This document shows, piece after piece, positions 6,466-63,072 of a stretch of DNA of 64,000 bases. The stretch covers positions 11,098,001-11,162,000 of the forward strand of contig OZ024741.1 of NCBI GenBank assembly GCA_964016885.1. The letters are read 5' to 3'. The DNA is from Eledone cirrhosa. Lineage: Eukaryota. The notes below the pieces were generated by a model that ran no database searches, was not told the origin of the DNA, and saw only the letters and a list, made by a program, of their open reading frames with translations. Positions within the stretch are counted from its first letter, which is position 1, and each line of letters begins with the position of its first letter. A program made the position numbers and the translations under genes.

Positions 6466-7082
6466 ATATTGTTATACTTTGGGAGGGTCATGTTGCCAAT
6501 AAGAAACACACGCACCAGTTGCTTTCACTTCAGTTTATAAATTTATAAATTTACAAATTTACAAACTTATAAATTTCTGGTTGGTTGGTTGGTTCCACAA
6601 CCAGATAGTTGTTTATATATAGTCATAGTCCTTTCGTCACACACTCTGTGACCTCTTCAACAATAAATAAATAAACAAATAGATAAATGAACACAAACAC
6701 ACACAGACACCTGGATGTGGCGCATGCGCAAACTGAGCACACAACACACACACAGAAACAAAATGGCGTAGAATAGAAGAAAGGAAAGGCACAGAAACAA
6801 AGGAAAGGAATCCCCAGTCACTGAAGAGGTCACAGAGTGTGTGACGAAAGGGCTATAACTATATATAAACAACTATCTGTTTGTGGAACCAACCAACCAA
6901 CCAGAAATTTATAAGTTTGTAAATTTGTAAATTTATAAATTTATAAATATATAATAAACTGAAGTGAAAGCAACTGGTGCGTGTGTTTCTTATTGGCAAC
7001 ATGACCCTCCCAAAGTATAACAATATCGGTTTCAACACACGATTTCAGATAAAGAATCTTGCTAAACAAATTCAGAAACGAA
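6466..7082. mobile_element. Fold-back family A PLE remnant: inverted pLTR (6466-6659, -) joined to 3'UTR + pLTR (6660-7082, +)
   Basis: Right part matches 1480-1876; left part is its reverse complement; TA-rich flanks. Confidence 0.9.
6816..6860 (+). ncRNA. Type I HHR, family A (truncated minus-strand copy at 6621-6659)
   Basis: AGTCA-CTGAAGA-GGTCACA gag TGTGTGAC-GAAA-GGGC-TA-TAACT; the minus copy ends GAAA-GGAC-TA-TGACT, which would complete stem I AGTCA/TGACT. Confidence 0.75.
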
Positions 7083-8476
7083 ATATATATATTTCGCCAC
7101 TACACTTTCGGGCCACATATGGGACCTCAAGGACAACAACATCACCTATGATCTCACTTGGAGATTACTGTCCAGAGCCAATTCTTACACGGGAGGACGC
7201 CGTCCGTGCAATTTATGCTCGGAGGAAACTTTACAAATGCTGTTTTCGACGGACCAACTCCTAAACAAGAAAGATGAACTGGTCACTGCATGTAAACATA
7301 GATTGCGTAGGACTTACCTCGCCCTCACACCCCATAATGACCCGGGGGGGGGGGGGGGGTAGACTAGGGCTATAACACCCCACTTGCCGATTTTGCAATG
7401 GGTAACCCCTGCTTGCCAAGGAAGACGTAAGATCTTCTTTGTATTCTTTTATCGCTTCCTTTATTTCCTTCCCCCCTCTCTCCTTAGTCCTTCTACCCCA
7501 GCTCTTCTCCTTTGTCGGCGTCTTTTCTCGACCACCCGAGGCTGCCCTTTGGCCCCATGTAGCCTTAGTACCCCCACCCCCCTCCCCTAGTCTATGATAG
7601 ATTTGGCGGACTCCGCCCTTTATAGCAGTTGGCTTAGACCCCGGATACTTGCCCCCTTTTTCCGACCGCTCCCACTATTCTCTGTGCCCTCTATATTTCT
7701 TAGTGGCACTTATGCCTTATTTTTTCGTTTCAGTATTTCTTGCTTCGCTTTTCTTCTGGGCGGGGTGGATTCTGAATTTATTTCTCCGTATTCTACCTTT
7801 ATTTCGTACGAACTTTCATGTAGCTTGTTTTAGATCTTTTAGAGTTAGCATTAGTATATATTTTTCTCGGGACTCAGAATTATTATCTCGTACAAGTTCA
7901 CTTTGCTGCACTGGGTCGTTGCTGGCCCGGGATGGAAACCTTTATTGTTTATTTCGTGGTAGTCTCTTTAGTATTTTGGCCCCTTTTGTTGACCTGTCAC
8001 CGTATCATTTACGTACTTATACCTCTTAAAAGGGTCCTTGCCTATCCCGTCCCACCTAGTTCTTTTACTTATTTCGTTATTTCTTTATTTATTTATTTCT
8101 TTACTTCTTTCTTTCTTTCTTTATTTTATTCTAGCCTAACAATAGCCTGAGACCTAGGTCGTAGAATTTAATTTACTTTACTTTTTTCTTTACACTTATT
8201 TGCTTTTCTTCACTCTCAGTATTTTTCCTTCCTATATATTTCTACCCCCCATTGTTCTACCTACCGTTCCGACTCCCCCCCCCCCTCCCCTGTATCTTCT
8301 TTGACCTCATGCCCAGCTGTAGCTGGCACTACCAACGCTTGATTGGGTCTACTCCACCCCTTCCACCCCCTCCCCTCTTTCTCCTACTGGCAGGTTTAGC
8401 CACCATCTCCCCTACTAATTTGCAACCACAGAATTACTACTGATTTTTGACAATCACTTTGACCATATATGGAATT

Positions 8477-8570
8477 ACCCCTTGAGAAGATCGGCTATTT
8501 AAATACCAGGATAAATTTTCATTTAGTCCAGAATTAGCCGTCGAAACGGCTTGAGCTCAGCTGTCGGGGT
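8477..8570 (+). ncRNA. Type I HHR, U3-A8 core variant (family B)
   Basis: ACCCC-TTGAGAA-GATCGGCTA...TAGCCGTC-GAAA-CGGCTTGAGCTCAGCTG-TC-GGGGT; predicted GUC cleavage after 8565. Confidence 0.85.
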
Positions 8571-8755
8571 CTTACTGGTTCCTATTACCCACTCTACTAC
8601 CTCAAGTATTGAGTACTTTGGTGCGTTATGGTCCACCTGGTTCCTTACCACATTTCCTTCGTTATCTAGCTCCTACTCCCGTAGTAGAGCACTTTCCGAC
8701 CCTACCACGCCGTATCCAGACTTTTCCGCTAAGCTCAATTCATTTCACCCGCACC

Positions 8756-10904
8756 ATGCGAAAACACAACATTGACTTCTCTACCAAGAACATCCCAATC
8801 CCACCGAAAAAATTTTACCTTCGGATGCTCACGCAAAAAATCGATCTATTTGCGAAAAGACTTAGATGGAGAACTTTTTTCTATGACAGATATTGCGACA
8901 ACCAAGACTTCGGCACCAAGGAGAGATTCGGATTTATTACCTACAAATCTCCGCCCCTGAACCCCTTGCTCGCACCCTTCGAGAATGACCTCTTCCAACT
9001 GGTCAAGAACATTAAATTTAAACCCAGACACAACCGATTCCTACAAAAACTCCGTAGCAACTTAACAGAGTATGATAACACAAATGACATCATGGTGCAT
9101 TCGGATAAAACTGGGAACCTATACTTTGTCAACCCTGACAGATACCACACACTGATCAGGAGCAGCCTAAACTCCACCTATAAAAAGGCCAACCACTCTT
9201 GCATCGAGGACATAAATCGAGATGGACAACAAATCACCTCCAGCCTCGGGGTCGCCGACCGCACGGAACCTCTAGACCCACGGACACCATACTTCACACT
9301 GAAGGACCATAAATCCGATTTTGACCGTAAACCCTCTATCAGGCTTATTAACCGACATAGGGAGAATCAGCAAAAAAATCCTAGACCGCGTGATACCAAA
9401 AGTCAAGCAACACACCCGACTTAGCCTATGGATCAACACCCAGGAAGTAATCTCCTGGTTCAGCAATATGGAGGATAAACGAGAAACTAAATTCATACAG
9501 TTCGACATAGAGAGCTACTATGCTTCAATCACCTTACCGCTACTTACTGCCGCCTTGGACTTCGCCGAAACACTTGTGCCCATCACCGACCAGGAAAGAA
9601 AAATCATCCTCCACGCCAGGAAGACAGTCTTACTCTTTGACGACTCTAAATGGATAAAAAGAGCTCCCGACTCACCCTTCGACGTCAGCATGGGCGCCAC
9701 GGACTCGGCGGAGGTCACAGACCTTATAGGATTATTCCTAATAGCCAAACTCACTGATATGTTTCCTGCATTCGGTGGTGGATTGTACCGTGATGATGGG
9801 CTCCTTACCCTTAAAGGGTACAACCCCAGTAGTACAGATCGGGTCCGGAAACAATTAATCAGATTCTTCCGCGACTGGGCATTTAAAATAACCCTACAAA
9901 CGTCCCTGACCCGAGTAAACTTCCTGGACGTGACCCTCGACCTCGAAAACGACCTGTACTACCCATACAGGAAACCTAATGACAATCTGCACTACATCCA
10001 CCGCCGATAAAACCATCCTAGGAACATCACAAACAACCTGGTCAAAAACATCTCCCTCCGCATATCCCGTTTGTCAGCTAATGAGCGGATATTCGATGAA
10101 CATGCGCCTTATTACAACCAGGCTCTCAAGCGGAGTGGTTTCCGGGAGGAAATATCCTACTGTTCAGCTCCCATTAGCGGAACCAGCAGGAGACACCGCC
10201 GCTCACGCAATGTAACATGGTTCAATCCTCCCCACAACGCAGAGGTGACAACTCCCATCGGGAAACTATTCTTTAGGCTCATTGAAAAACACTTCCCATT
10301 ACAACACCGCTACCACAACATAATTAACAAAAATACCATCAAACTCTCTTACAGCACTACACCAAACTTCGCACAAAACATCGTCTCCTCTAACAACAAA
10401 AAACTCAACCCCGATGGCAGAAATAACCTAAATAGCAGTGGAGAACCGACCAGGAGGTGTAACTGCCCGGATAGATCTATTTGCCCACTCGACAATAGAT
10501 GCAGAGACCGTAATGTGATCTACCAGTGCAACGTGAGGACGGATACCTCCAATAAAGCCTATATAGGACTTACCGCATGTGACTTCAAGACCCGGCTATA
10601 CCAACATAGACATACCTTCCGAAACCCGGCCCGGCGTCACGCCACTACACTTTCGGGCCACATATGGGACCTCAAGGACAACAACATCACCTATGATCTC
10701 ACTTGGAGATTACTGTCCAGAGCCAATTCTTACACGGGAGGACGCCGTCCGTGCAATTTATGCTCGGAGGAAACTTTACAAATGCTGTTTTCGACGGACC
10801 AACTCCTAAACAAGAAAGATGAACTGGTCACTGCATGTAAACATAGATTGCGTAGGACTTACCTCGCCCTCAAACCCCATAATGACCCGGGGGGGGGGGG
10901 GTAG
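8756..10904 (+). pseudogene. PLE RT-GIY-YIG ORF, copy 1 (frameshift ~9350, TAA at 10008)
   Basis: MRKHNIDFSTKNIPIP, SDKTGNLY, FDIESYYASI, SMGATDSAE, GLYRDDG, FLDVTLDL, CNC..CPL, VIYQC...YIGLT, CNLCSEE...CKH. Confidence 0.93.
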
Positions 10905-62002: not shown

Positions 62003-62010
62003 CATATATA

Positions 62011-62325
62011 ATATTAATAAATGGAAACTATCTTTATAAAACCATATTTATTTTATTATATATATTTCAAGGGTACCAACATTTTTGGTACGCTCTCATC
62101 AGATAAAATACAAAAAGTTGTTTTATAGATAGTGACATATCCAAACTTATCGTTTTAAGTTCTGACAGAACTTAAAACGATATGTTCTTGTTTTGGGATA
62201 TGTCACTATCTATAAAACAACTTTTGTATTTTATCTGATGAGAGTGTACCAAAAATGGTGGTACCCTTAAAATATATATAATAAATAAATATAGTTTTAT
62301 AAAGATAGTTTCCATTTATTAATAT
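62011..62325. mobile_element. 315-bp palindromic HHR mini-element (family L)
   Basis: Centre AAGTTCTG-A-CAGAACTT at 62165; arms ~155 bp. Confidence 0.88.
62051..62108 (-). ncRNA. Type I HHR (family L); plus partner 62229-62285 has GAAA>AAAA
   Basis: TTTTAT-CTGATGA-GAGCGTACCA AAAATGT TGGTACCCTT-GAAA-TATATA-TA-ATAAAA. Confidence 0.85.
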
Positions 62326-62800
62326 TATTGATATTATACTCCAAAAGAAAACTGTAGAGTGCTTCGAATCTGTTATAAATATATTTTTTGAATAACCAAC
62401 AAATTAAATAACTCTTTGCCTATATATATATATATATATATATATATATATGTGTGTGTGTATATATATATAATATATATATATGTCTGTGCGTGTGTGT
62501 GTGTGTGTGTGTGTCTGATGGTAGATAATATGCTTCCATAGGCGGTATGCCGGTTGAGAATCAGATAGATCCACACAATGATTGCGTCTCGAGCTGTCCG
62601 ACGGCGGAACAATTGTAACACACAATAAATTGAGTTCAGATGCATCACTGATTTTTTGTTTTCTATTCTCTCTCTCTCTCTCTCTCTCTCTCTCTATATA
62701 TATATATATATATATATATATATATATATATATTAGAAAGTGAGGTTTTTTTTACAAAATTAAAAATAACCGAGGTGTTCTACGTGAGTGAAAGTATAAA

Positions 62801-63072
62801 GAAAAAAATGATGAAATCGAAAATGCAACTGGAGTCTTATTTTAAAAAAAAATATATATTTATTTGGTTCCTTTACCGGTTTCGCAGTTCTTCTGCTTTT
62901 CAAAAGTAGAGTTGAGATGGAGGGTCTGTGGTTTTTCTCACGTGAGAAAAACCACAGACCCTCCATCTCTTTGAAAAGCAGAAGAACTGCGAAACCGGTA
63001 AAGGAACCAAATAAATATATATATATTTTTTAAATAAGACTCCAGTTGCATTTTCGATTTCATCTTTTTTTC
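62801..63072. mobile_element. 270-bp loopless palindrome of the family J pLTR with HHRs at 62871-62906 (-) and 62968-63003 (+)
   Basis: Centre TTTTTCTCAC|GTGAGAAAAA at 62941/62942; right arm has a ~9-nt deletion. Confidence 0.88.

Follow-up and report, generated by a model that had tools for sequence, protein, structure and literature searches.

How do palindromes form in which both 3′ ends of a retroelement face outward? The question is raised by a 64,000-nucleotide (nt) stretch of the Eledone cirrhosa genome (contig OZ024741.1, positions 11,098,001 to 11,162,000; hereafter the window, in whose numbering coordinates are given), part of a 3.0-Gb, AT-rich genome. A first-pass annotation of the window had listed ten inverted structures with hammerhead ribozyme (HHR) sequences in or near (TA)n. 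It had attributed their shape either to a pair of cDNAs, one primed from each side of a break, or to a fold-back template switch, and this interpretation was partly supported by our analyses. The palindromes are ordinary truncated insertions of Penelope-like elements (PLEs) with an inverted pseudo-long terminal repeat (pLTR), a class that is already known and an origin that the annotation had correctly named. What is new is a near-absolute rule that one arm of each insertion carries a 3′ tail and the other does not, together with the common occurrence of inverted arms consisting of the tail only.

Arm polarity and the one-tail rule

All ten inverted structures were found where they had been placed, and each has a minus-strand left arm and a plus-strand right arm, as had been claimed (Table 1, families F1 to F10). 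The polarity call does not rely on the ribozyme only, because it also matches the coding direction of long copies in F1, F3, F4, F5, F6, F9 and F10. Mapping of the window arms onto long natural copies of each family showed that the loci were correct but that the tail of one arm had been left off at most of them (e.g., F3 and F4; the spans of F6, F7, F9 and F10 were also extended once the tail was added). The "spacers" described at some centres proved to be the surplus 5′ stretch of the longer arm, and the real junctions are tight. In addition, an eleventh outward structure had been overlooked, whose short plus arm mirrors 57504-57557.

The same polarity was seen in a random sample of 80 evenly spaced 10-kb stretches (800 kb) from the four largest contigs, chosen without regard to the families. 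This sample held 35 tight head-to-head pairs and no true tail-to-tail pair (p 6e-11), far from a 50:50 division of inward and outward arms, and the ten families together reached a density of about 44 tight head-to-head pairs per Mb. The sole tail-to-tail row in the sample was an internal repeat. We also searched the genome with each family, taking the best 30 loci of the 42 to 2115 first-look candidates per family; for the tally, F6 was left out (its reference carries a foreign insert) and 19 duplicate loci were dropped. Among the 251 family copies, 130 were directly flanked at their 5′ end by an inverted arm, 90 lacked one and 31 extended beyond view. Two tail-to-tail rows were a single locus, and looser rows of this kind were separate inserts with TA between them or, again, an internal repeat. 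When inverted repeats were called de novo, 28 of 210 held an HHR, and 27 of these rows (14 structures) were outward; one repeat scored as inward (locus L326) proved outward on inspection. Consecutive HHRs no more than 1 kb apart were in minus-plus order nine times and in plus-minus order five times, so inward neighbours do exist, as separate inserts.

Outward polarity itself is already published. Head-to-head is "the most frequently observed" PLE arrangement (PMC3846280). For (TA)n-targeted PLEs, an inverted 5′-truncated copy adjoining the 5′ end and a tail that is often confined to one end have been described (PMC8557442), the layout appears likewise in PMC2377424 and PMC8969392, and paired opposite-strand HHRs are derived from truncated PLEs (PMC4209133).

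Every family has two kinds of 3′ end, one without and one with a tail of 43-167 nt, both fused to (TA)n. One tail arm was paired with one no-tail arm in all ten window structures, in 30 of 31 classifiable insertions of the 800-kb sample (4 unclassifiable), in 96 of 101 in all examined DNA outside own-query loci (16 unclassifiable), and in 97 of 99 at the family loci (15 unclassifiable; F5 excluded), a set that is biased by the query. The inverted arm was tail only, with no overlap with its partner, in 7/30, 21/96 and 19/97 insertions of the latter three sets. The tail arm was shorter at its 5′ end in a further 5/30, 20/96 and 28/97, such that each arm has sequence that its partner lacks. With respect to the target, (TA)n lay on both sides of 28 of 30 sample insertions against a background of 10% per side, which bears out the proposal that the outer ends are 3′ termini primed at (TA)n. 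Target-site duplications were found at 1 of 92 insertions (0.6 expected), where the flanking TA runs would hide them. The insertions form a dense natural data set on how PLE inverted repeats arise, and the one-tail rule and the tail-only arms provide a genomic test of two-ended priming versus fold-back.

Routes to a two-armed insertion

Based on the one-tail rule and the tail-only arms, we consider it probable that each insertion was built from two cDNAs, one primed from either end of a cut (TA)n target, the first of the two mechanisms proposed earlier. A purified PLE protein acts on both strands of AT-rich DNA in vitro, nicking and extending each, and its reverse transcriptase (RT) has two start sites that bound the tail, with 5′ truncation of the RNA shortening the product (PMC11167929). 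By such a route, the element protein would nick both target strands, after which one target end would prime at the RT start site at the tail end and the other at the start site at the pLTR end. Both cDNAs would be copied toward the RNA 5′ end, and their 3′ ends would be joined and then filled in, a joining that would necessarily leave the 3′ ends of the element facing outward. The arms mostly share subfamily alleles, which suggests that both likely came from one source locus.

In L1 twin priming, two target ends also prime on the retroelement RNA and an inversion results, with the second primer landing upstream and the arms not repeated. Here, in contrast, both cDNAs would begin at 3′ sites, and the arms would therefore repeat each other in inverted orientation. 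The in vitro protein, PAc (Poseidon, from Anolis), shares with the present families both-strand nicking and extension, an AT-rich target and a pair of RT start sites between which the tail lies. That paper (PMC11167929) draws no tie to inverted pLTRs ("inverted" occurs in it once, for a blocked primer), and we infer that its two-site priming may be what produces them. Published insertion units of endonuclease-containing (EN+) PLEs (PMC3846280; PMC8557442; PMC2377424) have, like those here, a 5′-truncated copy with an adjacent inverted 5′-truncated copy head-to-head, a tail at one end, partial tandems, a (TA)n target and an HHR in the pLTR. However, their tails are given as 30-40 nt, and the insertions described here differ in the near-absolute one-tail rule, the common tail-only inverted arms and the many pLTR-only units with sharp 5′ peaks. 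Within the PLE-mechanism literature that could be searched, from which most subscription papers and bioRxiv supplements were inaccessible, no paper states the two-cDNA model or the 5′ peaks.

Data from a related organism showed similar junctions. Raw reads from restriction site-associated DNA sequencing (RAD-seq) contained 11 opposite-strand joints from an arm start at 8521-8538 to arms starting at 8563-8622, RAD depth being biased by cut sites, and three contigs had F7 head-to-head joints with different centres.

Fold-back had been put forward as an equal option. By this route, one antisense strand would form a hairpin, prime its own synthesis there and be copied in reverse, and the endonuclease (EN) would then cut the product asymmetrically to leave a tail on one side; the tail has been ascribed to such EN resolution (Arkhipova 2013; Craig 2021). 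This route accounts for the head-to-head polarity, for the arms of one insertion usually sharing subfamily alleles and for microhomology of 6-8 nt at some F4 junctions, but we regard it as unlikely. Simple fold-back cannot yield tail-only arms unless part of the template arm is lost once it has been copied, the tails (43-167 nt) exceed what a staggered cut would be expected to leave, and each end runs into TA through TA-like bases. In addition, the tail ends coincide with the RT start sites in vitro (PMC11167929), 60 of the 236 differences between arms fall at shared alleles, and F4 site -108 is T in 14/18 tail arms versus 9/33 others. At window position 36442 of F4, and at loci L005, L006, L007 and L011, the tail arm has T and the no-tail arm A within one insertion, across subfamilies; this T/A site, one of about 70 tested, lies directly 5′ of HHR stem I at the putative +1.

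Recurring 5′ ends and centres

The distance between the start sites and the pLTR promoter is short (about 60-330 nt), so that many cDNAs made as proposed would likely run off the RNA 5′ end, leaving mini-palindromes that lack open reading frames (ORFs) and have recurring centres. Consistent with this, sharp 5′-end peaks were found in six families (F5, 66/122; F10, 29/49; F9, 22/48; F7, 16/41; F4, 19 and 18 of 56; F6, 21/97). The peaks are independent of the partner, occurring with many different partner arms or none. The initiator (Inr) consensus is YYANWY, and a match lay no more than 3 nt from 7 of 8 modal 5′ positions (background 0.17). A TATA-like box lies 29 nt upstream of the 5′ peak in F5 and F10. 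In the related organism, contig depth on F5 rises about 15-fold over 8520-8545 and drops after 8665. From these sequence features, the family-specific 5′ stop sites are likely the RNA 5′ end.

A further, tentative proposal goes beyond this: two-ended PLE insertion may be obligate, with the tail site used from one target end and the pLTR-end site from the other, and the ORF-less palindromes may be paired "strong-stop"-like cDNAs that ran off a capped RNA 5′ end. The stubs are likely dead on arrival and made anew every time. If the proposal is true, the palindromes would mark the transcription start of each family and settle how inverted pLTRs form. The one-tail rule and the tail-only arms also predict transcription starts to the base; under run-off these would be at F5 -60 (8525), F6 -70 (38088), F4 -107/-168, F7 -232 and F10 -146.

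A number of results weigh against two-cDNA formation and run-off at the RNA 5′ end. Junction microhomology was not enriched when a matched aligner was used (26/94 overlaps of at least 3 nt versus 22% simulated), and long junction gaps, that is, inserted letters, were enriched (25/94 versus 7% simulated). No accumulation of tail-arm 5′ ends was seen at the second start site, and F1, F2, F3 and F8 had no sharp 5′ peak. The TATA-like box has a background of 0.25, the Inr motifs were spotted before the formal test, and the excess of an extra G before +1 was weak (16/29 versus 19/60, p 0.04, rising to 0.10 once a single templated junction was removed). One of 12 opposite-strand raw-read joints was tail-to-tail (8585/8665, two 3′ ends). 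An asymmetrically trimmed hairpin intermediate could also give one tail.

Other candidates were tried and rejected. Microhomology-guided joining, suggested by exact extension at 14 of 25 clean junctions (52/77 set aside), was lost under the matched null, and a cap-derived extra G weakened from p 1.5e-4 to 0.04-0.10 under stricter controls. Collision of two RTs on one RNA was rejected as the arm ends showed no pile-up, no 5′ ends were seen at the HHR cut site, and an F1 peak at -369 was a microsatellite artefact.

Insertion could be two-ended and the recurring 5′ ends nonetheless be RT stall or joining hot spots rather than the RNA 5′ end. Several peaks do lie on short palindromes (CATATG in F4 and F7), those of F4 and F6 coincide with the 5′ boundary of HHR stem I, and the extra-G signal is weak. 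We think hot spots quite improbable, however, as the peaks also occur in single-arm copies and regardless of the partner arm, six of seven sites have little upstream structure, and the peaks match Inr and TATA-like motifs.

The first-pass annotation had also raised a palindromic, non-autonomous class resembling miniature inverted-repeat transposable elements (MITEs), or patching of pre-existing breaks at fragile TA repeats. Many inserts are indeed only 83-486 nt and ORF-less, F2 and F8 are truly ORF-less families, and a few junctions recur, in F4 only (in 4, 3 and 2 copies, at 8-nt or odd-centre matches). Both ideas are nevertheless largely refuted, with very little probability left to them. 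Junctions were distinct in 92 of 96 cases, and at family loci this held for every F1, F3, F5, F7, F9 and F10 junction, which upholds de novo formation with variable centres. The whole palindrome does not transpose, and these insertions form no MITE-like class. The inverted arm is absent from 90 of 220 resolved copies, insert ends lie at fixed RT start sites, and seven families trace to coding parents that carry a GIY-YIG endonuclease. Break patching that needs no endonuclease is not supported, given this GIY-YIG domain and the nicking of both strands of AT-rich DNA by a PLE protein in vitro (PMC11167929). The suggested test, by which identical centres would mean a transposing palindrome, is confounded: a family-specific 5′ site is where both arms end, and near-identical centres therefore recur without the palindrome moving. 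Palindromes of this kind ought to be annotated as PLE stubs rather than MITEs.

Assembly or library hairpin artefacts, for which a mirrored double structure in the small contig C1646 might be cited, are hardly credible, as the arms differ by ~2% (236 of 10850 columns), are asymmetric by a fixed rule and have similar junctions in contigs and raw reads of the related organism. The C1646 structure (C1646:36481-36993, loci L020/L023) consists of two F4 palindromes mirrored about a TA run and may itself be an assembly artefact.

Parent elements, ribozymes and other features of the window

Seven of the ten families are the 3′ ends of RT/GIY-YIG elements; F2 and F8 are ORF-less and retrozyme-like, and F7, with a body of at least 500 bp, had no parent among the loci searched. 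F1 and F5 have RT and GIY-YIG frames inside the window, and F3 has a 4.15-kb tandem unit elsewhere (locus L211) with a 649-residue RT+EN frame whose Atlas neighbour clusters include RVT_1/GIY-YIG (0.95-0.97). In long copies of F4, F6, F9 and F10, EN sequence is co-oriented ~1-1.7 kb upstream. A Pfam scan named none of four RT/EN frames (one weak RVT_1), and neither did the PDB. Partial tandems occur in F2, F3, F5 and F8. The tails of F4 (36553-36640) and F9 (62330-62419) are related in sequence, and their pLTRs differ.

The F2 (~437 bp) and F8 (540 bp) tandem units, the latter found in arrays, resemble non-LTR retrozymes in being ORF-less with a type I HHR (bioRxiv 10.64898/2026.07.22.740005; PMC7229834), but insert with the two-arm, one-tail signature of PLEs. 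A head-to-head array of a 310-bp HHR unit, at least five units per side (L360:3852-7200), is likewise retrozyme-like and inserted in the same two-arm layout as the PLE stubs. Some F2 copies (loci L140 and L144) have an embedded stretch resembling a short interspersed element (SINE), and the F2 unit (28450-28640) contains several ATTTGCAT motifs within a 33-nt repeat. We take ATTTGCAT to be an octamer-like motif, possibly the F2 promoter.

An Rfam scan of the window at the gathering score gave no ribozyme match. A custom scan for three-stem type I hammerhead cores gave 108 matches in the 800 kb versus 4 in shuffles, and the HHR-like folds that it predicts in the pLTRs are as expected of type I minimal HHRs. 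Most arms have an HHR, as had been described, but in five cases, single arms or pairs, the core is not intact: it is missing from both F5 arms and the F8 right arm, carries a deletion in the F3 right arm, reads AAAA for GAAA in the F9 right arm, and has C3U alone in the F1 left arm. Variant cores are U3:A8 in F5 and F10, U4C in F3 and U4A in F6; the U4A family is abundant in the sample. The U3:A8 covariation is known from PLE ribozymes (PMC4209133, PMC3088659). Schistosoma PLEs share it with F5 and F10 and have the same paired signature of truncated PLEs, two minimal HHRs that lie 100-700 bp from each other on opposite strands (PMC4209133). Core covariation was seen across the 800 kb (L318-L397), with 78 CUGANGA, 13 CAGANGA and 10 UUGANAA cores versus 2 UUGANGA and 3 CUGANAA.

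Table 1. Two-armed insertions and related PLE features of the window.
Feature	Position	Strand	Left (minus) arm	Right (plus) arm	Details
F1 insertion	6470..7083		6470-6659, no tail	6662-7083, ~60-nt tail	
F1 RT/GIY-YIG copies	1-1875 and 58229-60505				
F2 insertion	28221..28976		28221-28793, partial tail	28798-28976, no tail	left arm a partial tandem of the ~437-bp ORF-less unit
F3 insertion	34332..35889		34332-35027, no tail	35028-35889, 167-nt tail	
F4 insertion	36212..36640		36212-36379, no tail	36381-36640, 90-nt tail	canonical HHR cores 36257-36311 (-), 36451-36505 (+)
F5 insertion	36721..36881		36721-36825, tail	36825-36881, no tail	
F5 parent PLE tandem array	7095..15749	+			3542-bp unit with RT and GIY-YIG frames; TATA-like TATTTAAA at 8496; Inr-like sites 8521-8525, where short arms begin
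F6 insertion	36935..38247		36935-37026, no tail	up to 38247, 89-nt tail	U4A HHR cores 36960-37000 (-), 38093-38133 (+)
F7 insertion	39374..39798		39374-39598, 95-nt tail	39599-39798, no tail	
F8 insertion	40200..40972		40200-40785, no tail	40786-40972, 112-nt tail	left arm a partial tandem of the 540-bp ORF-less unit
F9 insertion	62008..62419		62008-62164, no tail	62165-62419, 90-nt tail	
F10 insertion	62737..63073		62737-62940, 62-nt tail	62943-63073, no tail	U3:A8 HHR cores
F10 longer copy	56761-57281				
Eleventh outward structure	57384..58030		partial tandem, HHR 57660-57723	57975-58030, short	

The window also contains other repeats. Two minisatellite arrays are present (18889-26307, 19-bp unit, ~398 copies; 53750-56738, 25-bp unit, ~120 copies), as is a partly duplicated RT of the long interspersed element (LINE) type at 41727-46553. 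At 48428-53515, a pair of 352-bp inverted arms (97%), separated by 4.4 kb, encloses an RTE/R2-like RT frame and is bordered by (CATA)n/(TATG)n. A C-rich PLE copy of Penelope/Poseidon type (29336-33210) has broken RT frames, and its 64-bp direct repeat ends in TA at 33822. Finally, a perfect 51-bp inverted repeat (16737-17215), its arms 377 nt apart and without HHR or TA flank, is possibly a DNA-transposon remnant.

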